Part shown: positions 14-20,421 of the stretch, in pieces | How the letters are laid out: the number at the start of each line of letters is the position of its first letter | How positions within the stretch are numbered: the first letter of the stretch is position 1 | Assembly (NCBI GenBank): GCA_964451365.1 | Contig: CAYVIB010000030.1 | Location: forward strand, 4,789-68,788 | DNA from: an uncultured Cellvibrionaceae bacterium | Lineage (GTDB): Bacteria; Pseudomonadota; Gammaproteobacteria; Pseudomonadales; Cellvibrionaceae | DNA length: 64,000 nt | Reading direction: 5' to 3' | Notes under the pieces: model-generated | What the model was told of the DNA's origin: nothing | Database searches by the model: none | Seen by the model: the letters and a program-made list of their open reading frames with translations, nothing else | Made by a program: the position numbers and the translations under genes

Positions 14-721
14 TCACCCCACCGACGCCAAAGACTCGTTCTCATGCACAAGCTTTCCATCGAACAGCCTGATCTGGCGCCGTCCCTTCTTTAGGGATCT
101 CGGGTCGTGGGTCACCATGCATATGGTTGTACCTTCACTGTTCAACTGGTCAAGTAACTCGACAACAGCATCCGAGTTTTTCGAGTCCAGGTTTCCGGTG
201 GGCTCGTCCGCCAGGAGAACGCTTGGTTTTCCTGCTATAGCCCTGGCAACTGCCACCCGTTGCTGTTGACCACCTGAAAGCTGAGAAGGAAAATGTTTCG
301 CCCGGTGTTGCATATCAACCTTGACCAGGGCGTTGGAAACCATTTCTCTACGCTCTGACCTTGATAGGTCTTTTCTATAGGTAAGGGGCAGCTCGACGTT
401 TTGTTCAACCGTAAGATCGCTGATCAGGTTGAACGACTGAAAGACAAATCCCATATGCCTGTTCCTGATGCTGGCCTGCTCATTGCGGGACAGGTCCGAA
501 ACATCGTGGCCGTCCAGCTCATAGGTGCCGTTGGTGGGTTTATCCAGCAAACCCACTATGGAAAGAAGCGTGGACTTCCCACATCCCGACGGCCCGACGA
601 TGGACACATATTCTCCTGTATAAATCTCCAGATCAATATTGTTCAGCGCGTAGGTTTCTATTTCATCAGTGAAAAAAATCTTGTTCAGTTTGGATATCGA
701 TATCAGCTTTTTATTTTTCAT
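14..721 (-). CDS. ABC transporter ATP-binding subunit (MacB/LolD/DevA-like, ATPase only)
   Basis: 235-aa ORF with Walker A GPSGCGKST, ABC signature LSGGQQQR, Walker B LLADEPT and H-loop VTHD. It starts 9 nt after the HlyD-like gene. A further minus-strand ATG at 3-5 suggests the permease partner begins at the window edge. Confidence 0.9.
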   Translation of the reverse strand: MKNKKLISISKLNKIFFTDEIETYALNNIDLEIYTGEYVSIVGPSGCGKSTLLSIVGLLDKPTNGTYELDGHDVSDLSRNEQASIRNRHMGFVFQSFNLISDLTVEQNVELPLTYRKDLSRSERREMVSNALVKVDMQHRAKHFPSQLSGGQQQRVAVARAIAGKPSVLLADEPTGNLDSKNSDAVVELLDQLNSEGTTICMVTHDPRSLKKGRRQIRLFDGKLVHENESLASVG

Positions 722-730
722 GGCAAACCC

Positions 731-1984: not shown

Positions 1985-2064
1985 AATATACTCCTCTAAA
2001 TTTCTCGATCGAGGTTTTATACTTATCCGTTATCCGAACTTAAATTCCGTTAACATACCTGGAG

Positions 2065-3282: not shown

Positions 3283-4598
3283 ATTTCACCGTCCCCGCTT
3301 TCGCTTACTTCTGACTTTACACATTGAAATTTTCCTGATCGCTCCGTCGCAATATATGAAACGTTTTCATGATCGACCTGCGCGGACTCCCCCAAGAGTT
3401 GGCGCAGATTGTCGACTACTTCCTTCTCCGCTCCATCCGTGTACCCGTCATTTACCATGGTCAGCAGGCTGAACCTGTGCGGAGCATTCTGTACGACCTG
3501 AAACAGGTCGAGCCAGCGGGGCGCACCCACTGCCTGACAAACATCGGCCACTGAAACCAAAGCGTCATCGGCTGTTCTTATTAAGGTCCCCACTCTTCCC
3601 TCCATGCTGACGACCGGCAAGGAGCTGCCACAGGAGCACTGATTGCCACGATAGCGAAAAACATCTCCGGTTTTGTAACGGATATGGGGAATGGCGCCAC
3701 GGTCAAGGCTACTAATATAGAGTTCGCCGATTTCCCCGACGCCGGCATAGTTATCACCTCTTATAATTTCCATAAAATAAACCTGGCTGTTTAAGTGGAG
3801 GGCGCCATGAGAACACTCCAGCGCCAGCCACCCCATTTCGGATGACGAAACCAGTTCGGCCAGTACGATGTTTTGGTGACCGAACGTCTCGAACGCATCC
3901 ATTATCTGGCGCCGGTTCAGCGCATGGGTTGCGGTATAGGTCATCACCACCGGTGCGTTGGGTAAGCTGACCTGTTTCTTCCTGGCGTGCCGCAAAAGGA
4001 AGGCAAAATGCGTCGGGTCGACATAGTAAAGGTCCGGCTGATAATCACATATCTCCTCCAGCGCCCGGTCAAGCAGTTCTTCCGACGTTGTCAGTAAATC
4101 GTGATAAACCGGAAGAACGAGCGTACCATCGCTCAACATCCTGTCTTCCCGAGTACTGTTTGGATTCGCACACTCAACATCGGAACAGTTGGGTGCGGCA
4201 TAACGGCAAATTTTCCTCGGCGCACGGGTAAAAGCCTGCTCCACGCTCCGGTTGACCCGGGTACATTCGATCGCGCGGGCCAAAAGGAGCATCCCGACTT
4301 CGAAGGTCACCAGTCGTTCTCCCGAGGTGCCCGAACTCTGGCTGCGAACCAGGCTTTCGTCGCTCAGGGAAAATCCTTTCGCGATGACCCCAACGGGAAA
4401 ATTTTTCCTGTAATCTTTCTTTTCCGTGCAGGGAATATCCATGACATCCTCGACAAAAAGGATATCGTCCGGCGTTAAACCGCTTTGCTCCAGATGTTTC
4501 CGGTAAAAGGGGACATTGGAATAAGCGTAATTAAGCTCTTTCAGAAAGGCATCGAACTGCGTCTCAGTAAACATTTCTCTCCTGACATCTACACTCAC
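3279..4598 (-). CDS. PaaK/CapK/coenzyme-F390-synthetase-like adenylate-forming enzyme
   Basis: 439 aa with N-terminal VPFYRKHLEQSGLTPDDI...IPCTEKKDYRKNFP and P-loop-like SSGTSGERLV. It also has YKTGDVFRY followed by a CSCG motif, as in phenylacetate-CoA-ligase-type enzymes. A 4-nt overlap links it to the terminal NRPS gene. Confidence 0.7.
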   Translation of the reverse strand: MSVDVRREMFTETQFDAFLKELNYAYSNVPFYRKHLEQSGLTPDDILFVEDVMDIPCTEKKDYRKNFPVGVIAKGFSLSDESLVRSQSSGTSGERLVTFEVGMLLLARAIECTRVNRSVEQAFTRAPRKICRYAAPNCSDVECANPNSTREDRMLSDGTLVLPVYHDLLTTSEELLDRALEEICDYQPDLYYVDPTHFAFLLRHARKKQVSLPNAPVVMTYTATHALNRRQIMDAFETFGHQNIVLAELVSSSEMGWLALECSHGALHLNSQVYFMEIIRGDNYAGVGEIGELYISSLDRGAIPHIRYKTGDVFRYRGNQCSCGSSLPVVSMEGRVGTLIRTADDALVSVADVCQAVGAPRWLDLFQVVQNAPHRFSLLTMVNDGYTDGAEKEVVDNLRQLLGESAQVDHENVSYIATERSGKFQCVKSEVSESGDGEI

Positions 4599-7500
4599 TG
4601 TTCAATTTCCGCCGGGGAAACCACTATCGGATTTAATCGACTGATTATCTTTGCCGCCAGACTGCCGGCATACTTCTCGTAGACCATATCCATGTGCTCA
4701 CCTTCCGCCGGCATCACATTAATTTTACCGCCGGTAACTTTATCCCAATCAAGATATGGGCTGGGGTTTACCTGATTTACATTGGTTCGAAACAGCTCGA
4801 TATCCAGCGAGGAAGACACGGGCTCGTACTGATCCATCACTTGCGGGAAAGTGATCAGCGCCTGCAAGTGGCGGTTTACAACGTCATCCTCGACGCCCTC
4901 GGGCTTGAGTCCCTGCTGGTTGATTGCTTTAACAAGACGCTGAATGGCCTTTTGTTCCGACTGACCCCTGATGCTTTCCCAATCGAACTCCAGGTCCTCC
5001 TGATAAAGCCCTTCAATCTTAAAGTACGGATTTTCCCGGTATAAATCCTCCTGCGCGCCACTTACACGATACGGCTGATCCAATATGCCCAAAAATGCCA
5101 CGTTATCTCCAGCTTTTTCAAACTGCCGGCCAATTTCATAAGCGACGGTACCACCAGACGACCAGCCCAACAGTCGATAAGGTCCCGCTGGTTGAATACG
5201 CTTGATTATGGAAATATAAAAACTTGCCAATCCTTCGATTGAAGTGGTGGTTATGTCTGTGTAGAGATCGGGTAACTGAAGTCCGTAAAATTGCGCTGAA
5301 TTCTCGAGTTGCTTTGCCAGTGGCTGATAGACCAGGGAAGAACCGGAAACCGGTGGCATGCCGAAAACAATGAAACCCGATTCCGACTCATTCAGCTTAA
5401 TCGCGATACGGTCAAGAACTGCCGGTTCAATATCCAAACCCAGTCTGGCGTACAAATCCCGTTCAGTATACCGGTTTTTGCTGTGCATGATTATTCGACG
5501 CAGCTCATTGATAAAGTCCCGGCCAAACGCCAGGATATCTTCTTCCCGATACCGGTTTGTACAAAACCGGAGGCTCACTTTAAATTTTTTGTCCAGAACC
5601 ATACTATCCACGGACAGCGCGTGCGGGGGAACATAGTCTTCTCCCACATCGTCGCCGTACGCTTCGTCAGCCAGGGAAAGCAGTGCACTAGATGCAAATA
5701 TCTGGTCGACACTGCCCAGATAATTAAACAGCAGTTGCGCGAATGGCTCGGCTCGTATGTCTGTTGTCGCGACAAAATGCTTTACAAGTCCATAACCCAA
5801 ACCTTTGTCGGGCAAGCTTCTATATTGTTGTTTGACGCTACTGATCAAGCTGTCCAGTTCTTCGTGCGTGGAAGAAACGTAGAATGGGAATTTACTTGTA
5901 AACCAGCCAATGGTTTCACTTATATCCGGGCTTTCTTCCAGTGGCTCCCTGCCATGCCCTTCCATGAGAAACCGACATCGATCGATACCGGTTCGCTTTC
6001 TCACCGCCAGGAACAAGCCTGTCAATAAAATTTCGTTGATGTCGGCATTTAGTGCCTGAGGCGCGGCTTTCAATAAATAAGAACTCTCGCCCGCCTCAAG
6101 CTCAACGGTTACGGACTTTCGTTTCGCAAGCGGCGTCGTTGCAGCGATGGCGGGAGCGCCCGGAAATAAGTCGGGTACGTCAGTTGCTACCTGGGCTTCC
6201 CAGAATTCGATTTGCCTTGCGAACTTCCCGGTTGTTGCATAACCCTCCAGGAACTCTGCCCAAGTCTGGTATGATGAAGTACGCGGTGGCAGTGACAGGG
6301 TCTCCCCTTTGATCAACTGTTGGCATCCCAACTGAAGATCACTAACCAGTATCCGCCATGATACACCATCAATAACAAGATGATGCGCAATAAGCAGCAG
6401 CCTTCCCTCTTCCTCCTGGCCAAAATCAAAATAGACCAACCGGAAAAGGCCGCCATTTTCCAGATCAAAACTCTGCTGGTACCTGCTTCCGACGTTCTGG
6501 ATAGTTTGTTTACGTTCCTCCTCCGCGGTGTCCGCAAGATTGTGATAATGGAAAATCTCGCCGAGCAGGTCGCGATCGAGGTCTTTATAAAAAGCTCTCC
6601 ATTTATCGGGTGCATCGGTTTTGAAAGCGAGCCGGAAAACATCGTGTCGTTTTAGCAGCGCATGGGCAAGCTGTCGAACACGGGGCCGAGTCAGGCCTGG
6701 AGGGACGGTAATCAACAATGACTGGTTGAAATGGTTCCTGGCGCCGAGAGAAGACAGCAGGAAATCCCGCTGAATCGGCAACAGGACTTGTTCGCCTTTC
6801 GCATCCTCGACAATCGCCTGCTGTCTTTCCGCCTTGCGCGCGATCTCCGCCAGACTTGCCACTGTCTTGGCGGTAAACACATCCCGGACACTTATGAAAA
6901 TATTATTCCGCTTTGCCCTGGCGACCACTTGCATCGATAAAATTGAATCTCCACCCAGATGGAAAAAATTGTCGTGAATTCCGACAACGCTGATATTCAG
7001 GACCGACGACAAAATGTCGCAAAGTGTTTTTTCGATCTCGTCGCGTGGCTGACCTTTCGCACCCGACTCCGCCAAGGCCTGGGGGATCGGCAGAGCACCA
7101 CGATCGACTTTGCCGGATACGGTAAGTGGAAGTTCGGTTAATATTACGAAAGCATCCGGCACCATATACTGCGGTAAGGCACTCTCCAGCGCGGCACGAA
7201 CCGCTTCCGGGTCCGTATCAGTGGCGTTGCCCCTTGGAACGAAATAGGCCGTAAGCTGTTTCCCAACCGCGGTGTCTGTCAGGGTGGCTACGGCATCCTC
7301 AACGTCCGCCAGCCCTTTCAGCGCATGCTCGACCTCACCCAGTTCGATCCGGTAGCCACGATGCTTTATCTGTGAGTCGTCACGCCCGAGGAAAACCAGC
7401 CGACCATCACTCAGCTGCTTGACCTTGTCCCCGGTGCGATAAAGAAATGCAGATACGTCGGGTCGAATTCGATTTTCAATGAAGTTTTCCGATGTCAGTC

Positions 7501-10500
7501 GATCCCGGTTTAGATAGCCGAGCGCAACGCAAGGTCCGCCAATAAATAATTCGCCGGCTGAACCCGGTCGCACTTCCGACAGATTTTCATCCAACACGAA
7601 GCACGCAGCATTAATTAACGGTTTCCCGATATTAACCGGCTGTCCGCACGCAATTACAGCGTAACAGGCGTTTACCGTCGCTTCGGTCGGACCATACGCG
7701 TTAATGGCCTTTTTTCCGTGACGCGAGCAGTATCGGCCAATTCTTTCCCAGGTGTCTTGAGTTATGTCCTCACCGCTCGATATCAGGTTCACCGCAAAAT
7801 CCGGCTCATGCTCAAGCACATCGATAACCTGACTGACCATTCGCGGTACGCTGTTGAATACATTTACCCCAGTATGTTTCATTAGCGCTACCAATGCGGC
7901 GGGGTCCCTGCTTTGCTCATCGCTGGCAAGCACGACTTTTCGACCGGCTATTAGCGAAACGAGGCCTTTGATCGACGCATCGAACGCATAGGAAGCATTC
8001 CATAACCAGGGGGCATCATCTGTCAGGTTGAGCTGCGCCAACTGCTCCCGAAAACCATGGTAAAAACTGTCGACGCATGAATGGCTAACCATTACTCCCT
8101 TGGGTGTCCCGGTCGTTCCGGAAGTGTAAATGATATATGCAAGCGCTTCCGCTTCGTCACCCTTGGCGGAAATATGCAGATTATCTTCGACGTAATTGGA
8201 AAGCGTTTCTTGGAGTGCGATGTCGTCGAGGCAAAGCCGAGTTTGACCCGGAAACGCGGAAACCTGAGAAGAACAGGTGATAACCGCCGACAACTCAGCA
8301 TCGATGGCAATAAATTTTTTGCGGCTGTCCGGTAAGCTCGTATCAATAGGTACGTAGGCCGCACCTGATTTTAAGGCTGCCAGAATGGCTACCACCAGGT
8401 CGATGGACCTTGGCAGGCAAATGCCCACCCTTTTCCCGTCCGGGCTGATATGTTCCGCCAGGTAATGAGCGAGCCGATTGGCTTGCGCATTCAGTTCGCT
8501 AAAGGTCAGTTGATGCGATTCGAATACCAACGCCGTATCGCCGGCTTTGTCCAATGCAGCCTGTTCGAACCGATAATGTATTGTCTCTCTCTTTTGTTGC
8601 AATACCTTTGATAGTGCGTCGTAGCGATTTGTGGATACTTCCCGTTCCTGTTGCAGGGAAGCAAAGCGTGGTGTCGGAACCTTCGCTTTCAAATCGCTTA
8701 TCTCAACATCGTTACCGGTATCCAGCGCTTCGACCACAACATCCAAAACCTCTTGGATATGAGCCAGAATCGCACCAGCTTCTGCTTTAGCAGCTGTTTT
8801 CAGGTTAAGCTCAAACTCGCCATCAATATCGCTCACACCCAGAGAAAGCGGATAATTGGTTCGTTCGCGCGAATCAATAATTTCGATATCGTTCAACTCC
8901 CCTTCGGCTTCATTATCCGAAAGTAACGCAGGGGCGGCGTGACGGTAATTAAGAATGGAAGTAAACAGCGGCGCATCTTTCGGCACGCCGCTGCATCGCT
9001 GCGCGGTCACCAGCGACGTTTGCTCGTGGGCGACAAGCTCCACCAATATATTCCTGATCCCGGTATAGACTTCCGACAGACGTCTGTTGTCCAGCTTAAC
9101 GCGTATTGGCAAAGTATTGATAAACAGCCCCACGGCTTTATCGATACCGTCAATACCCTGCTGGCGTCCCGAGAGTACAGTACCAAAAACAACATCGTCG
9201 CGTCCGCATAACGAGGAAACAACCATTGAAAACACGGTGTGAAATAAAACAGCCGGGCTGCAGCTCATGCGTTGACTAATGGCGCGAATGGATGCTGCCG
9301 TTTTGCCTGGCACGAACTCCACCACTTCGGCAATTTCAGTATTCCCCTGGATGTCGGTCAATCCCAAAGGCGTTGTCGCTTCGCTGACGTCTTCAAGCAT
9401 GCCGCGGAAAAAAGGTAGCGCGTGACCAGCAACGGACTGATCCCGTACTCTTTCCACAAACTGCCGATACGGTGCGGGCGTCGCAAGTTTGCCCGTTAGC
9501 CCCAATCGGTAGAGCTGTAATTCATCGCTAAGAATTTCCAGAACCAGGTGATCAGTAACGATATGGTGATACGCCAGAATAACGTCATACTGATCATTGG
9601 ATTGTGTTGCATAGAGCTTTATCAGGGGCGCCTGCTCCAGCGCTATTCTTTGCCTTCGCACGTGGCGTTCCAGTTGTGCCAACGCCGAATCACCCGATTG
9701 AACGGTGATAACTTCGACCGCCAGTTGAGCGGCACGCATTACGACTTGCACCGGCTTGGTGATGCCCTGCCAAAACACAGCTGTCCTGAGCATTTCGTGC
9801 CGGGCAATGATGAAGTTAAGTCCATCAATCAACTCCCGATACGCTTTATCGCCTTTTACCTTTAACATCGACAGTAAGATATAGGGGTCGTCTTCCCGAT
9901 CCATCAGGTGATGAAACAGAATACCTTCCTGCAGGTGCGACAATGGGAAAATATCCTCGATATTCTCCGCACCGCCCGGAACCCTGGAAACAATATAATC
10001 CAGATCCCCGGAGTCGAGTCGGACCAGGTCCAGCATATCGGCGGTGATTGCCGTACACCCTTGCGGTATGCCGGGTTTTGATTCAACCGGTGATTTTGCG
10101 GTCCGCAGACGATCGATTTTGGCCGCCATGGCCGCAAGGTCGGCAGCGCCGTAAACCTCTTTAAGTTCAATTGAATAGCCTTTTTCCCGAAGGCGACTCA
10201 ACATTTTAATCACGAGAATCGAGTGGCCACCCAACCTGAAAAAATTATCCGCTTTACCTGCCGACTCGATTTTAAGCAGTTCCCGCCATACGTCCGAAAG
10301 AACAATTTCCGTCTCTGTCCGTGGTGGTAGATATTTACCGGCGCGCAACGCACAGCCAGGTTCCGGCAACGCCTTGTAATTTATTTTGCCATTGGCGGTA
10401 AGCGGAAAAGCCTCCAGCACGACAAAGGCGGACGGAACCATGTATTCAGGCAGCGTATCCTGAAGCCGCGAGCGAAGCACATCCTCCAGTTGTTGCTCAT

Positions 10501-13486
10501 CCAACCCACTTTGCGCGGGAACCACATACGCAACCAGTTGCGCATCACCCGACGGACTTTGACACACTTTGGCCAAACCCGAATCCACTTCCGCGCAGGC
10601 GTTAAGCTGCGCCGTAATCTCACCCAGTTCGATTCGAAAACCGCGCAGTTTGACCTGATCATCCAGCCGGCCCAGGTATTCCAGGTTTCCATCCGCGCGG
10701 TAGCGCACCAGATCTCCTGTCTTATACAGCTTTTCTCCCGGCGAAAAGGGATGCTCGACAAATCTTTCCGCCGTCAGGTCCGGCCGGTTCAGGTAACCCC
10801 TGGCCAAACCGACGCCGCCAATGTACAACTCCCCTTCCGCGCCGGCCGGACACAAACGCATGGCCATATCGAGCACGAACAGGGCGATATTCTGGATCGG
10901 CCGGCCTATGGGAACCGAGTAACTGGAATCGCCCTGCCGGCAGTGATAGTACGTCACGTCAATTGCCGCTTCGGTCGGACCGTACAGGTTGTGCAATTGC
11001 ACATGGGATGCCTGCCGGTGAAACTCCGACACCTGGTTCGCCGTCAGCGCTTCTCCGCTGCAAAACACATAACGCACCTGCTGGCCAAACCGGCTCTGTT
11101 CATGCTTCAGGTAAAGCTCCAGCATCGACGGAACAAAATGCATGACCGTCACTGATTTTTCCCCGATAAGCTCGCTCAGATAATCCGGGTCCTTGTGCCC
11201 CGCCGGTCGGGCAACCACCAGGGTCGCGCCGTAACAGAGCGGCCACAGAAATTCCCAGACCGACACATCGAAACTGAAGGGGGTTTTCTGCAGCACCCGA
11301 TCCTGTGCATTGAGTTGATATGCGTTTTGCATCCATTCGATACGGTTAACCAACGCCCGGTGCGACACCATGACGCCCTTGGGAGTACCGGTCGAACCCG
11401 AGGTGTAAATGACATATGCCAGATTTGTTGGCCCTTGAACGGGCAGCCGTGGCAGGTTTTCGGTATTGAAGCCCTCCACCTGCGCTTTAAAACCGGCCGA
11501 GTCCAGTTCAACCAAATTGACATTCACCAGTGCGCGATATTGTTCCACCAGGTGGCTTTGGGTCAGCACCAGTGATACGCGTGCTTCGCCCGCCATGTAT
11601 TCGATCCGGGCAAAGGGATAATCCGGGTCGAGCGGCACATAGGCACCACCGGCTTTCAATACCGCCACAATGGCCACGACCATGTCCGCCGAACGCTCAA
11701 GCGCCAATCCCACCAGGCTGTCCGCTCCGACTCCCTGTTGACGCAGGTAACCCGCCAGTTGATTGGCCCGCTCGTTTAACTGCCGGTAGGTTAAACCGGT
11801 GGATTCAAATTGCACCGCCACCTGTTCCGGTGTTTGACGAACCCGCGCCTCGAACAGCTCGTGAATCTGTTTGTCCGCTGAATAATCCCGCCGTGTTTCG
11901 TTAAGTTCCTGTATCAGGTAATGGCGTTCGCGCGACGGCAGCATTTCCAGCTCGCTCAGACTGGCCGCCGGTTGGCGCACCATATTCTCCAGCAGGCACT
12001 GCATGTGCCCGCTTAGCTGTTGAATGTGGGAGCGGGTAAAAAGACTTTTATCGAATGTCCAACTCAGCAGTAAACCATCATCCAACACCGCCAGATCAAC
12101 GGACAAATCAAATTTCGCAAAAACCTCTTCGTCTTCTACCCGGCTGAAGCGGGTATCGGCAATGGTATGGTCGCTGCCGGACGCCTTCCCCTGTGCTGTC
12201 GCCATTGACAACATGATTTGAAACAGCGGTGAACGCGCGGTACTGCGCTCCACTCTCAGCCGCTCAACCAACTGGTCAAACGACACATCCTGGTTTTTCT
12301 GCGCAAGAATGTTAATTTGTCGAATGTTCTCCAGATAATCCGGCAACGTAGAAAAATCTGTATTTGCCCGCAACACCAGCGTGTTGACAAAAAAGCCAAC
12401 GAGGTCCTGGGTTTCCGGGCGCTGGCGATTGGCGACAGTAGTACCAATGACGATGTCGTGGTTGTTTTTATGACGGGACAACACCAGGCACAACGCCGCA
12501 TGAACAAGCATAAACGTGGTGAGGTTAAATCGCCTCGCCAAACTTTCCAGCGAGTTGCCAAGTTCAGCCGAAAGCCTGCACCTGATAATGTCTCCTTCAA
12601 AAGATTTGTGCTCCGGTCGCGGAAAGTCCAGAGGTAGTGTGTTTTCCGGGGCAATGCTTTCAAGGTGACGGTCCCAGTATTCATATTGCGATTTAATGCT
12701 TTCTTCCTGAAAAAACTCCCTCTGCCAGTGCGCGTAATCGGCGTACTGGATCGGCAACGGTGGCAGTGGATCGGGTTCGGAATTTTTCGCCGATTTATAC
12801 TGAACAATGAACTCCCTGTTCAATATATCCATGGACCATCCGTCCGATGCGATATGGTGTATATTGAACAGCAGGCAACCTTCTTCCTCACTGGTTTTAA
12901 TATAGGAGCACCTGATCAACAAATCCCGGCTGATATCAAATGTGCGCAGGGCATCCTGTTGAATGAGGTTCCGTAATTCTTTCTTCCGCTCTTGCGGTGA
13001 CAGGGCCGAAATATCCCGGCAACTGATTTTAAACGTTGTGTAATCCTGTATAATCTGCACAGGCCCTTCATCTTCCTCGCGGAAAATCGTGCGCAGGCTT
13101 TCGTGTCTCCTGATAATCCGCCCAAGCGCCAATTCCGCGGCAATCAAATCGAATGCCCCCTCCACGTGAAGCGCCATGGGCATATTGTACTCGGCGCTAC
13201 TGCCGTTAAGCCTGTCCAGGAACCAAAGACGTTGCTGGGTGAAAGACAACTTCGCAACGCCGCGATTTTTCCTTGCGAGGGGAATGGCACCGGCCAAAAA
13301 TGCATTGGTTCCGCCCGCTCCCTCATCTAAGAGTGCAATGAGTTCGGATTTGTACTGCTTTATCAAACTCGACAGTTCATCAGTCAAAGCGCCGTTTTTC
13401 GCCTTATACTTAAGCTTCTCTGATTCAACGTACAAATAAATACCGTTTTCAGAAGCTTTTTCAAATACGCTTTGTGCGTCCATCAA
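4595..13486 (-). CDS. NRPS, modules 8-9: dock-C-A(Ser)-T-C(atypical)-A(?)-T-E-TE
   Basis: 2963-aa ORF. Motifs in order: TubC-like docking (aa 1-55), C HHIASDGWS, A LAYVIYTSGSTGTPKG (code DVWHFSLID = Ser), T FFRLGGHS, C HHIVTDH. Then A LAYIIYTSGTTGTPKG (code DAKNISAVN, unassigned), T FFHLGGDSI (GGDSI is typical before E), E HHLVIDGVSW, TE GWSSGG. It has ATGA overlaps at both ends. Confidence 0.95.
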   Translation of the reverse strand: MMDAQSVFEKASENGIYLYVESEKLKYKAKNGALTDELSSLIKQYKSELIALLDEGAGGTNAFLAGAIPLARKNRGVAKLSFTQQRLWFLDRLNGSSAEYNMPMALHVEGAFDLIAAELALGRIIRRHESLRTIFREEDEGPVQIIQDYTTFKISCRDISALSPQERKKELRNLIQQDALRTFDISRDLLIRCSYIKTSEEEGCLLFNIHHIASDGWSMDILNREFIVQYKSAKNSEPDPLPPLPIQYADYAHWQREFFQEESIKSQYEYWDRHLESIAPENTLPLDFPRPEHKSFEGDIIRCRLSAELGNSLESLARRFNLTTFMLVHAALCLVLSRHKNNHDIVIGTTVANRQRPETQDLVGFFVNTLVLRANTDFSTLPDYLENIRQINILAQKNQDVSFDQLVERLRVERSTARSPLFQIMLSMATAQGKASGSDHTIADTRFSRVEDEEVFAKFDLSVDLAVLDDGLLLSWTFDKSLFTRSHIQQLSGHMQCLLENMVRQPAASLSELEMLPSRERHYLIQELNETRRDYSADKQIHELFEARVRQTPEQVAVQFESTGLTYRQLNERANQLAGYLRQQGVGADSLVGLALERSADMVVAIVAVLKAGGAYVPLDPDYPFARIEYMAGEARVSLVLTQSHLVEQYRALVNVNLVELDSAGFKAQVEGFNTENLPRLPVQGPTNLAYVIYTSGSTGTPKGVMVSHRALVNRIEWMQNAYQLNAQDRVLQKTPFSFDVSVWEFLWPLCYGATLVVARPAGHKDPDYLSELIGEKSVTVMHFVPSMLELYLKHEQSRFGQQVRYVFCSGEALTANQVSEFHRQASHVQLHNLYGPTEAAIDVTYYHCRQGDSSYSVPIGRPIQNIALFVLDMAMRLCPAGAEGELYIGGVGLARGYLNRPDLTAERFVEHPFSPGEKLYKTGDLVRYRADGNLEYLGRLDDQVKLRGFRIELGEITAQLNACAEVDSGLAKVCQSPSGDAQLVAYVVPAQSGLDEQQLEDVLRSRLQDTLPEYMVPSAFVVLEAFPLTANGKINYKALPEPGCALRAGKYLPPRTETEIVLSDVWRELLKIESAGKADNFFRLGGHSILVIKMLSRLREKGYSIELKEVYGAADLAAMAAKIDRLRTAKSPVESKPGIPQGCTAITADMLDLVRLDSGDLDYIVSRVPGGAENIEDIFPLSHLQEGILFHHLMDREDDPYILLSMLKVKGDKAYRELIDGLNFIIARHEMLRTAVFWQGITKPVQVVMRAAQLAVEVITVQSGDSALAQLERHVRRQRIALEQAPLIKLYATQSNDQYDVILAYHHIVTDHLVLEILSDELQLYRLGLTGKLATPAPYRQFVERVRDQSVAGHALPFFRGMLEDVSEATTPLGLTDIQGNTEIAEVVEFVPGKTAASIRAISQRMSCSPAVLFHTVFSMVVSSLCGRDDVVFGTVLSGRQQGIDGIDKAVGLFINTLPIRVKLDNRRLSEVYTGIRNILVELVAHEQTSLVTAQRCSGVPKDAPLFTSILNYRHAAPALLSDNEAEGELNDIEIIDSRERTNYPLSLGVSDIDGEFELNLKTAAKAEAGAILAHIQEVLDVVVEALDTGNDVEISDLKAKVPTPRFASLQQEREVSTNRYDALSKVLQQKRETIHYRFEQAALDKAGDTALVFESHQLTFSELNAQANRLAHYLAEHISPDGKRVGICLPRSIDLVVAILAALKSGAAYVPIDTSLPDSRKKFIAIDAELSAVITCSSQVSAFPGQTRLCLDDIALQETLSNYVEDNLHISAKGDEAEALAYIIYTSGTTGTPKGVMVSHSCVDSFYHGFREQLAQLNLTDDAPWLWNASYAFDASIKGLVSLIAGRKVVLASDEQSRDPAALVALMKHTGVNVFNSVPRMVSQVIDVLEHEPDFAVNLISSGEDITQDTWERIGRYCSRHGKKAINAYGPTEATVNACYAVIACGQPVNIGKPLINAACFVLDENLSEVRPGSAGELFIGGPCVALGYLNRDRLTSENFIENRIRPDVSAFLYRTGDKVKQLSDGRLVFLGRDDSQIKHRGYRIELGEVEHALKGLADVEDAVATLTDTAVGKQLTAYFVPRGNATDTDPEAVRAALESALPQYMVPDAFVILTELPLTVSGKVDRGALPIPQALAESGAKGQPRDEIEKTLCDILSSVLNISVVGIHDNFFHLGGDSILSMQVVARAKRNNIFISVRDVFTAKTVASLAEIARKAERQQAIVEDAKGEQVLLPIQRDFLLSSLGARNHFNQSLLITVPPGLTRPRVRQLAHALLKRHDVFRLAFKTDAPDKWRAFYKDLDRDLLGEIFHYHNLADTAEEERKQTIQNVGSRYQQSFDLENGGLFRLVYFDFGQEEEGRLLLIAHHLVIDGVSWRILVSDLQLGCQQLIKGETLSLPPRTSSYQTWAEFLEGYATTGKFARQIEFWEAQVATDVPDLFPGAPAIAATTPLAKRKSVTVELEAGESSYLLKAAPQALNADINEILLTGLFLAVRKRTGIDRCRFLMEGHGREPLEESPDISETIGWFTSKFPFYVSSTHEELDSLISSVKQQYRSLPDKGLGYGLVKHFVATTDIRAEPFAQLLFNYLGSVDQIFASSALLSLADEAYGDDVGEDYVPPHALSVDSMVLDKKFKVSLRFCTNRYREEDILAFGRDFINELRRIIMHSKNRYTERDLYARLGLDIEPAVLDRIAIKLNESESGFIVFGMPPVSGSSLVYQPLAKQLENSAQFYGLQLPDLYTDITTTSIEGLASFYISIIKRIQPAGPYRLLGWSSGGTVAYEIGRQFEKAGDNVAFLGILDQPYRVSGAQEDLYRENPYFKIEGLYQEDLEFDWESIRGQSEQKAIQRLVKAINQQGLKPEGVEDDVVNRHLQALITFPQVMDQYEPVSSSLDIELFRTNVNQVNPSPYLDWDKVTGGKINVMPAEGEHMDMVYEKYAGSLAAKIISRLNPIVVSPAEIEQ
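4598..5400 (-). other. Thioesterase (TE) release domain of the terminal NRPS (approximate bounds)
   Basis: GxSxG nucleophile GWSSGG is encoded at 5150-5167. It is preceded by VFGMPPVSGSSLVYQPLA (alpha/beta-hydrolase start). This is the last domain of the ORF. Confidence 0.85.
5480..6800 (-). other. Epimerization (E) domain directly upstream of the TE (approximate bounds)
   Basis: HHLVIDGVSWRIL is encoded at about 6355-6387 (HHxxxDxVSW is E-type). It begins LLPIQRDFL, and the upstream carrier domain has the E-partner motif GGDSI. Confidence 0.8.
8650..9960 (-). other. Atypical condensation domain (HHIVTDH) between Ser module 8 and module 9 (approximate bounds)
   Basis: N-terminus is FPLSHLQEGILFHHLMDREDD, which is DCL/dual-E/C-like (LSxxQEGxLFH plus an HH-L-xxxx-DD element). 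The active site AYHHIVTDHLVLE is encoded at about 9546-9572 and lacks the G-W-S found in the other seven C domains. Confidence 0.7.
10354..12028 (-). repeat. Copy 1 of a 1,675-bp perfect direct repeat (C-domain tail + C-A linker + whole Ser A domain, module 8)
   Basis: Hand alignment at offset 3,470 nt. Identity starts at agccaggttccggcaac (10354/13824) and ends at gcttagctgttgaatgtg (12028/15498). Every ORF-track entry in the two intervals is duplicated with identical translation. Confidence 0.95.
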
Positions 13487-16400
13487 AATTCTCCTTCCTC
13501 AACAAGTCCGGAACATGCTATTTCCTCATGCAGCCGGTCGTTTTTCTCCTTCAGCCTGTTTTGGCGAATTACCTCCGCCATATTCGACAGAACGGGATTT
13601 TCAAATACGTCGAATACATTCATCGGATACCTGGACAAGTCATATTGCTTGTTTATTTTTGCCACCAGTTTCACCGATAATAGTGAGTGACCGCCAGAGC
13701 GAAAAAAATGCTGGCTGCGACTGATCTGTTCTTTATTAAGCAGGAGCAGTTCAGACCATACGACTGCCAAGTGGTTTTCGAATTCATTGCCCGGCGCTTC
13801 ATACTCCGCCTCCTGAACAAGATAGCCAGGTTCCGGCAACGCCTTGTAATTTATTTTGCCATTGGCGGTAAGCGGAAAAGCCTCCAGCACGACAAAGGCG
13901 GACGGAACCATGTATTCAGGCAGCGTATCCTGAAGCCGCGAGCGAAGCACATCCTCCAGTTGTTGCTCATCCAACCCACTTTGCGCGGGAACCACATACG
14001 CAACCAGTTGCGCATCACCCGACGGACTTTGACACACTTTGGCCAAACCCGAATCCACTTCCGCGCAGGCGTTAAGCTGCGCCGTAATCTCACCCAGTTC
14101 GATTCGAAAACCGCGCAGTTTGACCTGATCATCCAGCCGGCCCAGGTATTCCAGGTTTCCATCCGCGCGGTAGCGCACCAGATCTCCTGTCTTATACAGC
14201 TTTTCTCCCGGCGAAAAGGGATGCTCGACAAATCTTTCCGCCGTCAGGTCCGGCCGGTTCAGGTAACCCCTGGCCAAACCGACGCCGCCAATGTACAACT
14301 CCCCTTCCGCGCCGGCCGGACACAAACGCATGGCCATATCGAGCACGAACAGGGCGATATTCTGGATCGGCCGGCCTATGGGAACCGAGTAACTGGAATC
14401 GCCCTGCCGGCAGTGATAGTACGTCACGTCAATTGCCGCTTCGGTCGGACCGTACAGGTTGTGCAATTGCACATGGGATGCCTGCCGGTGAAACTCCGAC
14501 ACCTGGTTCGCCGTCAGCGCTTCTCCGCTGCAAAACACATAACGCACCTGCTGGCCAAACCGGCTCTGTTCATGCTTCAGGTAAAGCTCCAGCATCGACG
14601 GAACAAAATGCATGACCGTCACTGATTTTTCCCCGATAAGCTCGCTCAGATAATCCGGGTCCTTGTGCCCCGCCGGTCGGGCAACCACCAGGGTCGCGCC
14701 GTAACAGAGCGGCCACAGAAATTCCCAGACCGACACATCGAAACTGAAGGGGGTTTTCTGCAGCACCCGATCCTGTGCATTGAGTTGATATGCGTTTTGC
14801 ATCCATTCGATACGGTTAACCAACGCCCGGTGCGACACCATGACGCCCTTGGGAGTACCGGTCGAACCCGAGGTGTAAATGACATATGCCAGATTTGTTG
14901 GCCCTTGAACGGGCAGCCGTGGCAGGTTTTCGGTATTGAAGCCCTCCACCTGCGCTTTAAAACCGGCCGAGTCCAGTTCAACCAAATTGACATTCACCAG
15001 TGCGCGATATTGTTCCACCAGGTGGCTTTGGGTCAGCACCAGTGATACGCGTGCTTCGCCCGCCATGTATTCGATCCGGGCAAAGGGATAATCCGGGTCG
15101 AGCGGCACATAGGCACCACCGGCTTTCAATACCGCCACAATGGCCACGACCATGTCCGCCGAACGCTCAAGCGCCAATCCCACCAGGCTGTCCGCTCCGA
15201 CTCCCTGTTGACGCAGGTAACCCGCCAGTTGATTGGCCCGCTCGTTTAACTGCCGGTAGGTTAAACCGGTGGATTCAAATTGCACCGCCACCTGTTCCGG
15301 TGTTTGACGAACCCGCGCCTCGAACAGCTCGTGAATCTGTTTGTCCGCTGAATAATCCCGCCGTGTTTCGTTAAGTTCCTGTATCAGGTAATGGCGTTCG
15401 CGCGACGGCAGCATTTCCAGCTCGCTCAGACTGGCCGCCGGTTGGCGCACCATATTCTCCAGCAGGCACTGCATGTGCCCGCTTAGCTGTTGAATGTGCG
15501 ATTCGCTAAAGATGTCGGCATCGTATTCCCAGGCGATGGCCAGATAATCGCCGGAACGGTAGGCATTTATGCTCAGGTCGAATCGGGCCGCAACGTCATC
15601 CAGCACGATCGGGGTGAATTCCACCTCGGACAATAAGCTGCCCCGATCAACCCCCGCACCGAACCCCATATCCAGCGTTAACATAATCTGAAACAAAGGA
15701 GAATGAGATGACGATCTTTCCACGTTCAACTGTTCAAGAAGATACTCGAATGGCACATCCTGATTGGCTTGGGCTTCGATATTAACGTTCCTGATCTGCT
15801 GCCAGAAATCGTGCAATTCGTTAGACGACGCACGGTTACACGACGTATCCGTTCGCAGCACCACCGTATTGACAAAGAAACCGATGAGCGTTTCAAGTTC
15901 GGGCCGTTGCCGATTCGCCACCGGGGTACCTATCACGATATCGTCTGTGTTGCCGTGTCTCGATAAGAGCAGGCTCAGGGCGCCATGCAACAGCATAAAT
16001 AAAGTAACGCCATGTTTATTCGCGTACTGCTGCAAGTCATTGACGCGGGCAACCTGACCAGCAGTGTATAAGCGGCCCAGGTAACGTTTTTGTAGAGGCC
16101 GGGCGTTATCTAGCCGTAGCTTGTGTGACTGCGGCGCATCCGCCAGTTGCTTCCGCCAATAATTAACCTGGCTTTCGAGCGCCCCATTATCCAGCCATTC
16201 CCGCTGCCAGTGAGCGAAATCCACGTATTGGACCTGCAAGGGCGGCAGGTGCGCGGCTTCGTGTTTTTGCAACGCTTGATAAAGTGTTAAAAACTCGCGT
16301 TTCAAAATTTCCATGGACCAGCCATCGGTCGCAATATGGTGCATGTTAAATATCAATACGCCTTCCTTGGATTCACGTGGGTCCAAGCGGATAAACGACG

Positions 16401-16986
16401 CTCTGAGCATTAAATCGCTGGAAAGGTCGAAAGGAGTTTGCGCATCCCGGATGATCAGGTCGCGGATGGCCACATCCCTCCCGGATGAACCAGCGACACC
16501 ATCCAATTCGACCACATCCAGTTTAAATTGAAAGTCGCCGCGGACGACCTGGAAAGGCTCACCCTCTTCCTCCACAAAAACAGTACGCAAAGGCTCGTGA
16601 CGTCGCACGATTTCCGATATTGCCCTTTTCGCCGTGTCTTCGCAAAACTGCCCGCTTACCTTAAGCGCCATCGGCATGTTGTACTCACAGCTTTGACCTT
16701 GCAGTCGGTCGATAAACCAGAGACGTTGCTGTGGAAAAGAGAGCATAAACCGGTTGGCTTCCTCTCTGCCAATCGGTCTTATAGGGTTGCCGTGACTACG
16801 ACGCTGGCCTGAAGCAGGCACGGTCGAGAAGTAATCCAGAATTTTCTGTTTGTTCTCCCGGATTAATTCAATATCCTCCGCCGTGGCGACGCCTTTGGCG
16901 GCTTTGACTTTAAGTTCGCCACCCAGCACGGATACCAAAATTCCCTTTTCAATGAAAGAATCCAGGAGCTTACCGATGTCCATCAT
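13483..16986 (-). CDS. NRPS, module 7: dock-C-A(Ser)-T
   Basis: 1167 aa with TubC-like docking MMDIGKLLDSFIEKGILVSVLGGELKVKAAKG. Motifs: C HHIATDGWS, A code DVWHFSLID, T FFRSGGHS, acidic C-terminal tail LVEEGEF. It has ATGA overlaps with both neighbours. Confidence 0.95.
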   Translation of the reverse strand: MMDIGKLLDSFIEKGILVSVLGGELKVKAAKGVATAEDIELIRENKQKILDYFSTVPASGQRRSHGNPIRPIGREEANRFMLSFPQQRLWFIDRLQGQSCEYNMPMALKVSGQFCEDTAKRAISEIVRRHEPLRTVFVEEEGEPFQVVRGDFQFKLDVVELDGVAGSSGRDVAIRDLIIRDAQTPFDLSSDLMLRASFIRLDPRESKEGVLIFNMHHIATDGWSMEILKREFLTLYQALQKHEAAHLPPLQVQYVDFAHWQREWLDNGALESQVNYWRKQLADAPQSHKLRLDNARPLQKRYLGRLYTAGQVARVNDLQQYANKHGVTLFMLLHGALSLLLSRHGNTDDIVIGTPVANRQRPELETLIGFFVNTVVLRTDTSCNRASSNELHDFWQQIRNVNIEAQANQDVPFEYLLEQLNVERSSSHSPLFQIMLTLDMGFGAGVDRGSLLSEVEFTPIVLDDVAARFDLSINAYRSGDYLAIAWEYDADIFSESHIQQLSGHMQCLLENMVRQPAASLSELEMLPSRERHYLIQELNETRRDYSADKQIHELFEARVRQTPEQVAVQFESTGLTYRQLNERANQLAGYLRQQGVGADSLVGLALERSADMVVAIVAVLKAGGAYVPLDPDYPFARIEYMAGEARVSLVLTQSHLVEQYRALVNVNLVELDSAGFKAQVEGFNTENLPRLPVQGPTNLAYVIYTSGSTGTPKGVMVSHRALVNRIEWMQNAYQLNAQDRVLQKTPFSFDVSVWEFLWPLCYGATLVVARPAGHKDPDYLSELIGEKSVTVMHFVPSMLELYLKHEQSRFGQQVRYVFCSGEALTANQVSEFHRQASHVQLHNLYGPTEAAIDVTYYHCRQGDSSYSVPIGRPIQNIALFVLDMAMRLCPAGAEGELYIGGVGLARGYLNRPDLTAERFVEHPFSPGEKLYKTGDLVRYRADGNLEYLGRLDDQVKLRGFRIELGEITAQLNACAEVDSGLAKVCQSPSGDAQLVAYVVPAQSGLDEQQLEDVLRSRLQDTLPEYMVPSAFVVLEAFPLTANGKINYKALPEPGYLVQEAEYEAPGNEFENHLAVVWSELLLLNKEQISRSQHFFRSGGHSLLSVKLVAKINKQYDLSRYPMNVFDVFENPVLSNMAEVIRQNRLKEKNDRLHEEIACSGLVEEGEF
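13824..15498 (-). repeat. Copy 2 of the 1,675-bp perfect direct repeat (module 7)
   Basis: Same evidence as copy 1. The encoded peptide runs from HIQQLSGHMQCLLENM... to ...ANGKINYKALPEPG in both NRPS proteins. Flanking C and T sequences differ. Confidence 0.95.
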
Positions 16987-19900
16987 ATGAGGAACTCCTC
17001 CGCATCCTGGGTCTGGCTTATTTCCTTTTCCAACTTGACGAGCGACAGGTTGCGGTCAATCAACTCGGCAATCGAACGTATGGAACCATGGGAAAAAACA
17101 TTCTGGATGTTCACTGCTCCCGGATAAATATTGTTTATGGCCGCCACCAGCCTTATCGCAAGAAGTGAGTGTCCGCCTATATCAAAAAAACCGGACGTAA
17201 CGCTTATTACATTCTCTTTTAAATCGAGCAGCGTGCTCCATATCTGGACCAACTCCTTTTCCGTATCCGTTTTCGCTTCAACATAGTCACACGTCGTGAA
17301 GAAATCGGCAGGATCGGGAAGCGCGCTTTTATCCAATTTCCCGTTGGAGCTGAGCGGCCAGGATTCGACAGGCACTATCGCATCGGGAACCATGTAATTG
17401 GGCAAAGTCGTGCTCAATGCCGCACGCAATGCCGCCGCATCACCAACAGCTCCGGCAATCGGTTTGATATAGGCAATCAGGCGTTTTTGGTTGGTTGAAT
17501 CCTCCCTCGTGGTAACAACGCAGGAATCCACTTCACCGAAACCGCCAATGGTGTTTTCAATTTCACCCAATTCAATGCGATATCCGCGAATTTTCACCTG
17601 ATGATCCGCTCTGCCCAGAAATTCGATATTGCCGTCCGGCAAATAGCGCCCAAGGTCTCCGGTTCGATAGAGCCGACTGCCCAGCGTTGGATGGTGAAAA
17701 AAAGCTTTCTCTGTTAATGCCTGATCACCATAATACTCGCGCGCAAGACCATCTCCGGCAATAAAGAGCTCGCCGGCAACGCCAAGTGGCGTGAGCTGCA
17801 GCTCCTGATCAAGAATGTAGAAAGCCTGATTGGACAGCGGCTTACCGTAGGGGATTGATCGCCACGAGTCGGTATCGCCTTCGATGGGATAATGGATTGA
17901 CCACACGGAACACTCCGTCGCCCCACCCAGGCTGTGGAGGTGTGCGCGGGGGAACTTATGTCTCAGTCGAGCCGGCAGCTTTACATCGATCCAGTCCCCG
18001 CTCATCAGTATATGACGTAACGGTGCGGTACATTGTCGGTTCTTGTAGTCCAACTGATCGGCCAGAAGCGCGGCGGACAACGGAACCGTATTCCACAAGG
18101 TTACCCCCTCCTGTTCAACCAGCGTAAGCCAGTGTTCCGGGTCGATCGTCCGTCCATCTTCCGGAATGACCACCCGGCCTCCCGCAGCCAGCAAACCAAA
18201 GAAATCATAAACAGACAAATCGAACGTTAGCAGCGAAGCCGCCAGTATTTTATCGCTCGCGGACACTTGATAACGAGCATTGATATCGAGCAGGGTATTC
18301 ACCGCCGCACCGTGTTCTATTGCCACACCCTTGGGCTCCCCGGTGGAACCGGAAGTAAATATCACGTAAGCGAGGTTGTCAGGACCAGCGCGCCTTGGCA
18401 GGGCGCCGGCTGTGGTAACGGCATCGATATCCGCGATTACAATATCATTGACAAGAATCGAACCGACGCCTTCAATCGCATCCTCGGGAGAACTCACGAA
18501 CATGTATGAGCAACCGGATTTGGCCAGCACACGTTGACAACGCGCATTCGGCCACCTGACTTCCAACGGTAAATAGGCACAACCACTCATCATTATTGCG
18601 AGAGTGGCAATTAACTGCCATCTGCCCTTTGGTAATCTCACCGCGACCAGGCTTTCAACCTCCAGCTTCAGCTCTTTCAAATACAAATAAAAGCTGTACG
18701 CGTAAACAAAAAGCTCGGAATAAGTCATGTAGCCATCGGCATCGTATAATGCGATCCCATCCGGCTGCTTAACAACCTGTCGGAGAAAAAATTCGTGGAG
18801 GCAATGAGCGGGTCGCTCTACCTGTTCACCTGGACTTGCTTCCAATAACAAGCGGCGCTCAGCATCGGAAAGAAAATCAATCTGCCGCAGTTTTACCTGC
18901 GGCCGGTTGGCAATTTCCGTCAAGGTATTAATAACGTGCTGGTTGATTCTTTCGACATAACGCTGTTCAAACAGGTCTGTGTCATAAATGACTTTGGTAC
19001 TTATACCGGTGTCCGTAAGGCTGATATCAAATTCGAGGTCAAACCGGGCGGCCACGCAGGGATGACCACGTTCCCTAAGCGCGACACCCGGTAGAGTGAT
19101 CTCGTTCTTATGAGCGCCCCCGGGGCTGAACTCATTGACAGTGGTAAGCATTATCTGGAACAACGGCGTTACGTCAGCCCGTCGGGCCACATTCAGTTCT
19201 TCCACGAGTTTATCGAAAGGAATATCCTGGTTTTCCTGCGCTTCCAGGTGCGTTGTCCGCACATGCTCCAAATAGCTCCGCAGGTCTTCAAAATCCGTAT
19301 TGATCTTTAATACGACTGTGTTGACAAAAAAGCCGATCATCGACTGCAACTCAGCGTTCGGCCGGTTTGCCACTGGTGTGCCTATGATAACTTCATGGCT
19401 GTTAGTGTGCCGGGCGATAACGATACAGAGCGCGGCGTGGAAAAGCATGAAAGGCGTCACTTGCCATTTGATAGCCAGGTCCTCAAGTTTCGCGGCAATG
19501 GAAGACTCCAACCTGCCGCGAACTTCGTCGCCGCGAAACGTTCTTTCCATCGAACGCGAACCGTTCAACGGCAGGTTATGCACGGGCGCAACATTTTTTA
19601 GTTGACCGTCCCAATACTGCAATTGACGCGCATACAATGATTGTGAATCCGCGTTTCGCTGCCAACAGGCATAATCAGCATATTGCAGAACGAGCGGCGG
19701 TAAATCGACCTCACGGGATTCACTGACAGCGGCGTAACAAGCGAAAAATTCCCGAACTAGAATCTCCAGCGACCAGCCATCGGATGCAATATGGTGGATA
19801 TTAATCAGCAGTATTCCCGTTGCGTCCACCGAAGGCAGCTTGATGTAAGTCGCACGTAACATTAAGTCCCGCGACAGGTTAAAGGTATAACCCACTTCGT

Positions 19901-20420: not shown

Positions 20421-20421
20421 A

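Follow-up and report, generated by a model that had tools for sequence, protein, structure and literature searches.

Modules 7 and 8 of the synthetase encoded in the window (the whole 64,000-nt stretch of DNA that was analysed) contain one and the same 1675-nt A-domain unit, set between C, T, and docking domains that differ, and a related cluster from a different metagenome (contig L001) carries its own identical pair at the homologous place. We consider it probable that the unit was common to modules 7 and 8 before the two lineages split and has been kept uniform within each of them by gene conversion. The synthetase is a nine-module lipopeptide-type NRPS of an uncultured marine-type gammaproteobacterium; nine A domains were found, in agreement with the module count of an earlier sequence-only reading of this DNA. 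The features on which the analysis turns are the following.

4595..13486, minus strand: gene for modules 8-9 and TE, 2963 aa (ORF and Pfam domains)
10069..10353, minus strand: A-T linker and T8, outside the repeat and immediately downstream of copy 2; clusters with the L001 ortholog
10354..12028, minus strand: repeat copy 2, carried by module 8 as residues 487-1044 of a 2963-aa protein
12029..13823, minus strand: unique inter-repeat segment, 1795 nt (domains and protein coordinates)
13483..16986, minus strand: module-7 gene, dock-C-A-T, 1167 aa (ORF and Pfam domains)
13824..15498, minus strand: repeat copy 1, carried by module 7 as residues 497-1054 of a 1167-aa protein
15499..16986, minus strand: dock and C7 body, outside the repeat; clusters with the L001 ortholog rather than with C8

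Every gene of the NRPS cluster lies on the minus strand, an orientation that went unmentioned in the sequence-only reading; in gene order, copy 1 is read from 15498 to 13824 (module 7) and copy 2 from 12028 to 10354 (module 8). The 2963-aa protein begins with module 8 and contains three Condensation-family stretches, two A domains, two T domains, and one TE. Condensation, AMP-binding, AMP-binding_C, and PP-binding profiles were matched in canonical order (Pfam E-values 1e-95 to 1e-8), and the PDB matches of the module were LgrA, SrfA-C, and EntF. Between the copies lie the A-T linker, T7, the C-terminal tail of module 7, a 4-nt gene overlap, a TubC_N-type dock, and most of C8. Two plus-strand ORFs (10490-11155 and 13687-14625) were treated as spurious, because they lie opposite well-supported NRPS coding sequence where the tract is GC-rich.

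Direct comparison of 10354-12028 with 13824-15498 gave agreement at 1675/1675 bases, exactly as had been claimed; these are the limits of the maximal exact run, and the copies are offset by 3470 nt. Exact identity over 1675 nt rules out chance. A repeat search and self-blastn of 4-38.5 kb showed this to be the sole near-identical repeat of the NRPS cluster, the next-best self-matches by self-blastn having 65-73% identity over 150-310 nt. The unit extends from the final C-domain helix across the C-A linker and Acore into Asub, through A10 and LPxP, and its peptide ends had been called correctly (HIQQLSGHMQC... to ...NGKINYKALPEPG). The share of the C domain, put earlier at ~45 aa, is approximate: the Pfam C profile gives 38 aa, a part described as ~18 aa of final C helix plus the ~36-aa linker. 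At both ends of the unit, identity drops from 100% to ~50% at the nucleotide level within a few bases (C7 versus C8 ~50%; T7 versus T8 46-49%), which confirms the earlier remark on differing C, T, and docking domains.

An AF2 model of the module (mean pLDDT 86.5) places the start of the unit at the third or fourth residue of the last C helix (H495-514, module-7 numbering) and its end just ahead of a disordered A-T linker (pLDDT <50 at residues 1056-1060); the C-A linker, residues 515-550, falls within the unit. The Stachelhaus code of the repeated A domain is DVWHFSLIDK, extracted with a GrsA reference fragment. We take this code to specify Ser, by its likeness to an EntF-like DVWHFSLVDK and a consensus DVWHLSLIDK. 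The code thus supports the Ser specificity proposed earlier, and product positions 7 and 8 would be loaded by one enzyme sequence, with Ser-Ser as the predicted outcome.

To place the repeat in an evolutionary context, we compared the window with L001, which is 79-80% identical, collinear over 18.5 kb, and has the same architecture. At the corresponding position, L001 contains a 1682-nt exact repeat; its two copies are mutually identical and have 82% identity to the window copies. Between the two genomes, the 5' boundaries of the unit lie no more than 3 nt (1 codon) apart and the 3' boundaries no more than 11 nt (4 codons). In a four-way codon alignment, 292 sites inside the unit follow genome (modules 7 and 8 alike within the window and alike within L001) and 0 follow orthology. 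A 15-nt indel inside the unit likewise differs between the genomes and is common to both copies within each. With both modules aligned together, the dock and C columns contain 380 sites that follow orthology and 20 that follow genome, and the linker and T columns 69 and 0, respectively. Synonymous divergence (dS) of the unit is 0.71 between genomes and ~0 within a genome, with flanks at 0.61-1.11 between genomes. The pattern is thus present in both genomes at hand. The sequence-only reading had asked if relatives would show the whole module as identical; in L001, identity is confined to the unit.

This is the signature of concerted evolution: within-genome paralogs are closer than orthologs, synonymous sites included, and the flanks follow orthology, with sharp breakpoints and discordant phylogeny. 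Replacement of A domains and gene conversion inside NRPS clusters are established processes (PMC3640908, PMC8097286, PMC7486941). In the scenario we favour, the unit would already have resided in both modules in the common ancestor of the window and L001 genomes, and repeated non-reciprocal homologous recombination between direct repeats 1.8 kb apart would have maintained uniformity in each lineage. Conversion tracts would stop in the flanks, which are ~50% identical in DNA, and the boundaries would thereby stay fixed. Given 0/1675 within-genome differences and a between-genome JC distance of 0.20 for the unit, the last homogenisation in each lineage dates to roughly the most recent 1% of the period after the split. 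Of the earlier proposal of recent gene conversion, the conversion is supported, whereas the idea that it was solely recent is not, since the L001 pattern implies a recurrent or long-standing process. At the 3' edge, module 8 of the window has four codons of module-7 type (EPG) where module 8 of L001 has KPD, a difference that points to distinct conversion events whose tracts ended at slightly different positions. That four-codon hint is also the sole clue to the direction of donation.

With a single relative available, ancestral sharing is not strictly separable from parallel replacements involving the same donor and boundaries. We nevertheless regard it as unlikely that each lineage underwent an independent, recent, one-off replacement of an A unit, starting from an ancestor in which A7 and A8 were different. 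A single very recent event would produce the complete within-genome identity seen in both genomes, A-domain replacement is recurrent in NRPS evolution (PMC8097286, PMC3640908), and functional constraints could favour the same boundaries (PMC7486941). However, the same donor module would have been needed twice, because dS of the unit (0.71) is no deeper than that of the flanks; the two events would have had to use the same 5' codon and 3' ends within 4 codons of one another, yet flanks with ~50% nucleotide identity provide no guide to such positions; and both would have had to be confined to about the most recent 1% of the divergence.

Searches for further relatives returned the L001 pair alone. 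The module-7 protein has a 100% identical database entry (P0001) and an ortholog at 80% (P0002), and P0002/L001 was the only close relative in genome contigs, metagenome contigs, and the protein database. When the module-7 protein was searched against genome and metagenome contigs, the best further matches had 45-46% identity and were not orthologs. Exact look-ups of the complete module-7 protein and of P0001 gave no record. A protein search with the unit alone returned only A domains with at most 55% identity; it also missed P0001 and P0002 and is thus not exhaustive. This search, uninformative on near-identical fragments, argues weakly against a recent foreign donor of the unit.

Direct repeats of this kind also predict reciprocal products. 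A crossover between the copies would remove 12029..13823 plus one copy, and the earlier prediction that this deletion is in frame proved correct: removal of one repeat period leaves a single open frame of 2973 aa (residues 1-1054 of the module-7 protein joined to 1045-2963 of the module-8 protein), although 3470 is not a multiple of 3. A low-frequency eight-module (des-Ser) allele and a ten-module allele are predicted in the population. Under the gene-conversion scenario, the eight-module deletion and the ten-module duplication would presumably be purged by selection on the peptide. Neither deletion alleles nor recombination intermediates were seen, but both make no new k-mers and so are invisible to the k-mer approach taken.

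Could the repeat be a product of assembly, with a second copy that does not exist or with substantially different copies rendered identical? The window is a metagenome-assembled contig from an organism found only in metagenome runs SRR11843815-30, L001 was assembled from a metagenome with SPAdes (14.7x coverage), and bubble collapse followed by loop traversal would give identical copies by construction. Nonetheless, we judge this explanation very improbable. In k=31 per-run assemblies from at least 6 runs, contigs start exactly 30 nt (k-1) inside the repeat end. One Logan contig (L169), from 3 samples, corresponds to window 13853-11999 at 100% identity and spans the inter-repeat segment with 30 nt of repeat at either end, and three further contigs begin at the same base. 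Contig breaks k-1 bases inside both repeat ends are the signature expected of a true arrangement of repeat, intervening segment, and repeat, and they establish that the two-copy structure is real. Furthermore, the architecture recurs in a second organism whose repeat has another sequence, neither reading frame is interrupted, the domain order is canonical, and collapse itself requires near-identical copies, whereas the orthologs differ by 18%. A look-up of the product of the contig predicted on the T8 side (window 4595-10381) returned no record, and the contig with the downstream gene extends only to window 7499. The assembly-collapse risk raised in the sequence-only reading is genuine for the exact identity of the copies, whereas their number is backed at the level of the read graph. 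A de Bruijn assembler that walks a collapsed repeat edge twice would yield identical copies in any case, and identity of exactly 100%, as opposed to roughly at least 97%, may reflect assembler consensus with a few real differences hidden.

The unit also differs in composition from its surroundings. GC3 is 0.649 in the window unit and 0.627 in the L001 unit, compared to 0.545 ± 0.022 (maximum 0.591) elsewhere in the NRPS genes. The elevation could result from GC-biased conversion or, equally, could persist from a foreign source of higher GC from which the unit came. Neither the unit nor its immediate surroundings contain an E. coli-type Chi site, and the host's Chi may differ; the window contains four such sites (1.8 expected), all away from the unit. 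We also assessed the unit as a candidate GRINS, a type of duplicated region in assembly-line genes that has intense skew and promotes gene conversion, defined by mean |GC skew| and mean |TA skew| both >0.15 in 150-nt windows with a 30-nt step (PMC8256042). A duplication of 1675 bp at 100% identity exceeds the >500 bp and >80% identity expected of such elements within one cluster, the conversion signature is present, and the correlation of GC and TA skews is somewhat higher in the unit (r = 0.37) than elsewhere (r = 0.05). The skews themselves, however, fall short of that threshold (mean |GC skew| 0.124; mean |TA skew| 0.107) and are not exceptional for these genes, in which other blocks of 1675 nt reach 0.182 and 0.160, respectively, and GRINS are reported to be rare in proteobacteria and mostly found in PKS modules. 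We accordingly give this classification scarcely any credence and rejected it on skew, the duplication notwithstanding.

Least credible is a recent duplication of the whole module with the identical stretch as its undiverged remainder. Modules 7 and 8 do adjoin, are both dock-C-A-T, and share with module 2 C domains slightly more alike than the remaining ones, but identity falls abruptly at both unit ends, C7 and C8 (46% aa identity) are no closer to one another than either is to C2 (46-47%), T7 and T8 have 33% aa identity, and dS between the module-7 and module-8 flanks is saturated. A tandem duplication of this type, in which the C and T domains would be one another's closest relatives and about as similar as the A domains, is rejected on these values; table entries of 100 for T5/T7 were ignored, as they derive from a very short local alignment with an imprecisely delimited T5 segment. 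The same values uphold the proposal that exchange was limited to the C-A linker plus the A domain.

Conversion within each lineage, as favoured here, makes the locus a clean new example of an already known process. rRNA operons and tuf genes undergo concerted evolution by gene conversion (Santoyo and Romero 2005, as cited in PMC9205934). They share with our locus within-genome paralogs that are closer than orthologs, synonymous sites and indels included; unlike those whole genes or operons, the converted tract here is an internal segment of two genes with unrelated flanks. The locus is thereby a clean case of bacterial concerted evolution within an internal gene segment, with a compositional shift compatible with GC-biased conversion. 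Like the GRINS of PKS clusters (Nivina et al. 2021), it combines duplicated intracluster tracts with a tie to gene conversion, but it does so in the absence of intense nucleotide skews. For genome mining, near-identical A units may fragment a short-read assembly or be made uniform in it unnoticed, so that module counts and products assigned to MAG clusters need junction checks such as the k-1 contig test used here.

Within NRPS clusters, the closest parallels are mcyB1/mcyC and mcyA2 of microcystin synthetase, in which an intracluster A tract overwrites that of another module and A-domain trees are discordant with C and T trees (PMC3640908, PMC8097286). The mcy tracts lie mostly inside Acore (motifs A3-A9; 167-1029 bp) and changed the substrate, whereas the unit here is a complete A domain with the C-A linker and the last C helix, its copies are identical, the pattern occurs in two lineages at dS ~0.7, and the substrate is kept rather than diversified. 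Similarly, A-domain recombination here is independent of the partner C domain, as in the landscape of Baunach et al. 2021; unlike that Acore-centred landscape, the linker and Asub belong to the exchanged unit. In a small survey of 156 unrelated NRPS loci, near-identical tracts were few and their limits varied (C-middle to A-N-terminus, Acore only, or whole modules).

The unit most closely resembles the "linker + A domain" unit of Calcott et al. 2020 (PvdD pyoverdine engineering), in that the A domain moves with its cognate ~36-residue C-A linker while the C body and T domain stay native. In contrast to that engineered unit, the present one is natural and evolutionarily maintained, and its boundary lies ~18 residues further upstream (aa 497/498), taking in the last C helix. 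For NRPS engineering, the locus shows one C-helix/linker/A unit working in two different C/T contexts over a long stretch of evolution; it supports "linker + A" substitution boundaries and suggests adding the last C helix. Tentatively, and with more doubt than confidence, it might be read as a naturally validated exchange unit of long stability, whose upstream boundary at the N-terminal end of the final C helix and downstream boundary at the residue following LPxP were kept over dS ~0.7 while homogenisation of the interior ran to hundreds of substitutions, with the raised GC3 of both lineages as the footprint of GC-biased conversion. If so, the locus would be a rare within-gene natural experiment quantifying biased conversion in prokaryotes, and it would also yield a design rule of transferable kind, in which the last C helix and the linker are moved along with the whole A domain.

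The ORF listing places every NRPS gene of the window on the minus strand, and ORF and domain calls gave the following layout:

34732–37959 (−), starter C-A-T
20422–34728 (−), four modules
16983–20567 (−), one module
13483–16986 (−), module 7, dock-C-A-T, 1167 aa
4595–13486 (−), modules 8 and 9 plus TE, 2963 aa

Direct comparison of window positions 10354–12028 with 13824–15498 (offset 3470) showed agreement at all 1675 of 1675 positions, as the sequence-only reading had claimed, and these coordinates are precisely the limits of the maximal exact run. The repeated unit corresponds to aa 497–1054 of the module-7 protein and aa 487–1044 of the module-8/9 protein, with the peptide ends HIQQLSGHMQC at its start and NGKINYKALPEPG at its end. 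The C, T, and docking regions were also said to differ, and between modules 7 and 8 they do so strongly, with ~50% nucleotide identity in dock+C and 46–49% in the T region; at the protein level, C7 and C8 are 46% identical, each is equally close to C2, and T7 and T8 are 33% identical. Beyond the repeat limits, modules 7 and 8 are ordinary paralogs. Self-blastn of the NRPS region (4–38.5 kb) found no second near-identical repeat, the runner-up matches being 65–73% identical over 150–310 nt. Deleting one repeat period in silico left a single open frame of 2973 aa, consisting of residues 1–1054 of the module-7 protein followed by residues 1045–2963 of the module-8/9 protein, so the proposed deletion would be in frame and give an eight-module synthetase.

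Several neighboring features of the cluster were also recorded. ORF 16983–20567 (−) shares 146 nt with the 3′ end of the four-module gene upstream and encodes 1194 aa in the window compared to 1145 aa in its ortholog on L001, a metagenome contig of one relative; because of this difference, its true start is probably ~49 codons downstream, just ahead of a TubC_N docking domain at aa 55–102 of the product. Upstream of the starter module, window 38018–42207 (−) carries a PvdQ-like Ntn acylase (penicillin amidase family) and a cyclic-peptide ABC exporter. The accessory genes downstream of the TE (window 14–4574, −) include a CapK_C/PaaK-like adenylate-forming enzyme (true start at the ATG at 4574, 431 aa), a SufS-family PLP enzyme, and an efflux pair that is MacA/MacB-like or DarC/DarD-like.

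PDB sequence matches confirmed a canonical C-A-T module in the module-7 protein. In an AlphaFold2 model of this protein (mean pLDDT 86.5), the unit is predicted to begin at the N-terminal end of the last C helix, and the whole C-A linker (residues 515–550, 36 residues), Acore, and Asub lie inside it, with the first A-domain helix at residues 551–561. The 3′ limit falls just past the LPxP motif that follows A10, directly before the disordered A-T linker (pLDDT <50 at 1056–1060). Stachelhaus codes were read against a GrsA fragment, with a control that gave the expected DAWTIAAICK, and the code of the unit was DVWHFSLIDK, a Ser code by published assignments. The module 2 A domain (aa 495–1049 of the 4768-aa protein from ORF 20422–34728) has the same code, with only 51% aa identity to the unit and an ordinary GC3 (0.535), and Thr-like codes occur in modules 3 and 5. 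The mutually most alike C domains of the cluster, C2, C7, and C8 (46–47%), each lie upstream of a predicted Ser-type A domain.

For the module-7 protein, the protein database contained one close homologue, P0002, which is 80% identical and comes from an ENA metagenome assembly (ERZ23461240). The contig that encodes it, L001, aligns collinearly with window 21987–3502 at 79% nucleotide identity and itself contains an exact 1682-nt repeat (6557–8238 = 10042–11723) at the homologous position, whereas the unit is only 82% identical between the window and L001. In a four-way codon alignment, the unit contained 292 sites at which the copies pair within each genome and differ between genomes, and 0 sites that unite orthologs against paralogs; the two copies of each genome also agree in a 15-nt indel that separates the genomes. 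In the flanks the pattern was reversed: dock+C had 380 sites of the orthology pattern versus 20 of the genome pattern, and linker+T had 69 versus 0. Between genomes, dS was 0.71 for the unit and 0.61–1.11 for the flanks; within genomes, dS of the unit was effectively zero. The 5′ boundaries of the two repeats agree to within one codon, and the 3′ boundary in L001 is four codons shorter. Because those four codons are of module-7 type in module 8 of the window and not in that of L001, the conversion events may have had slightly different end points.

By sequence comparison, this pattern is the classical signature of concerted evolution. Most parsimoniously, modules 7 and 8 would already have had the unit in common in the shared ancestor of the two genomes, and gene conversion between the direct repeats would have re-homogenized it repeatedly and separately in each lineage, by a mechanism that we infer to be RecA-dependent and non-reciprocal. 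Because the flanks have diverged, the tract cannot expand, and selection on the peptide would presumably purge the crossover products, eight-module and ten-module alleles. The sequence-only reading, recent gene conversion or recombination limited to the C-A linker and A domain, is supported, and the site counts and the L001 repeat strengthen it: what was read as a recent conversion becomes concerted evolution within boundaries that are conserved.

The unit has a GC3 of 0.649 in the window and of 0.627 in L001, compared to 0.545 ± 0.022 (maximum 0.591) in blocks of the same length from the rest of the NRPS genes and about 0.51–0.53 in the L001 flanks, a comparison of two lineages. This elevation is compatible with GC-biased gene conversion, and an old foreign origin of the unit fits it equally well. 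A GRINS element was rejected, with mean |GC skew| of 0.124 and mean |TA skew| of 0.107, both below the 0.15 cut-off (PMC8256042). Because no differences occur over ~1680 nt within either genome at a between-genome JC distance of 0.20, the latest homogenization in both lineages falls within roughly the last 1% of the time that has passed since they split. Two one-off events, one per lineage, would yield the same pairing of copies in place of repeated homogenization but are improbable, as both would need to fall in that latest ~1%. Purifying selection as the cause of repeat identity is ruled out, since synonymous sites are identical too.

The RNase Z encoded in the window shares no more than 59% identity with that of named taxa (Marinobacter, Exilibacterium, Hahella); because short contigs from metagenome runs SRR11843815-30 are the only place where the identical protein occurs, the window is a MAG contig of an uncultured gammaproteobacterium. 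For a true arrangement of repeat copy, inter-repeat segment, and repeat copy, per-run assembly at k=31 is expected to yield a contig in which 30 nt of repeat flank the inter-repeat segment on either side, with a 122-aa product from the first complete codon. Four Logan contigs contain exactly this product, all beginning at window 13853, and one of them, found in three samples, equals window 13853–11999 exactly (1855 nt, 100% identity). Because these contigs begin or end 30 nt inside the repeat, the raw read graphs of independent runs branch at both ends of the repeat. The exact identity of the copy interiors could be assembler output, as de Bruijn bubble popping and a double walk produce identical copies, but the conclusion of concerted evolution survives even a true copy identity of only about 97–99%, because orthologs differ by 18%.

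Elsewhere in the window, a low-GC island at 56913–63836 (GC 0.42–0.46 versus ~0.50 elsewhere) includes a three-gene minus-strand operon whose last gene encodes an LmuB-like SMC/Rad50-type ATPase (padloc E = 4e-15), and is probably a phage-defence island; it also carries:

61102–62382 (+), type II DNA methyltransferase
63003–63836 (−), AbiJ-like protein

ORF 55488–56318 (−) retains only the N-terminal ~215 residues of the dihydroxy-acid dehydratase IlvD (profile positions 3–211 of 559). This truncation is real and not an assembly error, because an independent Logan contig (L158) carries the same 276-aa gene call.

Among 156 unrelated NRPS loci gathered during searches for relatives, only about five had intralocus repeats of at least 90% identity, and the limits of these near-identical tracts vary:

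L023 (Pinirhizobacter soli), 3951–5204 = 10413–11666, C-middle to A-N-terminus, 1254 nt, 99.9%
L008, 2785–4160 / 11755–13130, near-identical intralocus tract
L020 and L092, near-identical intralocus tracts

Further tract types among the last three loci were Acore (1379 nt, 94.6%) and whole-module tandem repeats (~92%). Tracts of this kind are uncommon without being exceptional. A protein-database search with the unit alone missed its own parents, P0002 and P0001 (a 100% match to the module-7 protein), both of which are in the database, and its negatives are unreliable.

For NRPS engineering, the locus gives useful information on boundaries; it is also a candidate case of biased conversion and a warning for the prediction of clusters from MAGs. 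The process itself is already known, and this unusually clean example will not surprise specialists: there is good documentation of A-domain sequence being replaced or converted among modules within one cluster, microcystin synthetase being an example (PMC3640908, PMC8097286). Compared to the Acore-centered recombination landscape (Baunach et al., 2021), however, the unit described here takes in the C-A linker and Asub, and compared to the 'linker + A domain' unit (Calcott et al., 2020), its natural upstream boundary lies one helix further upstream.
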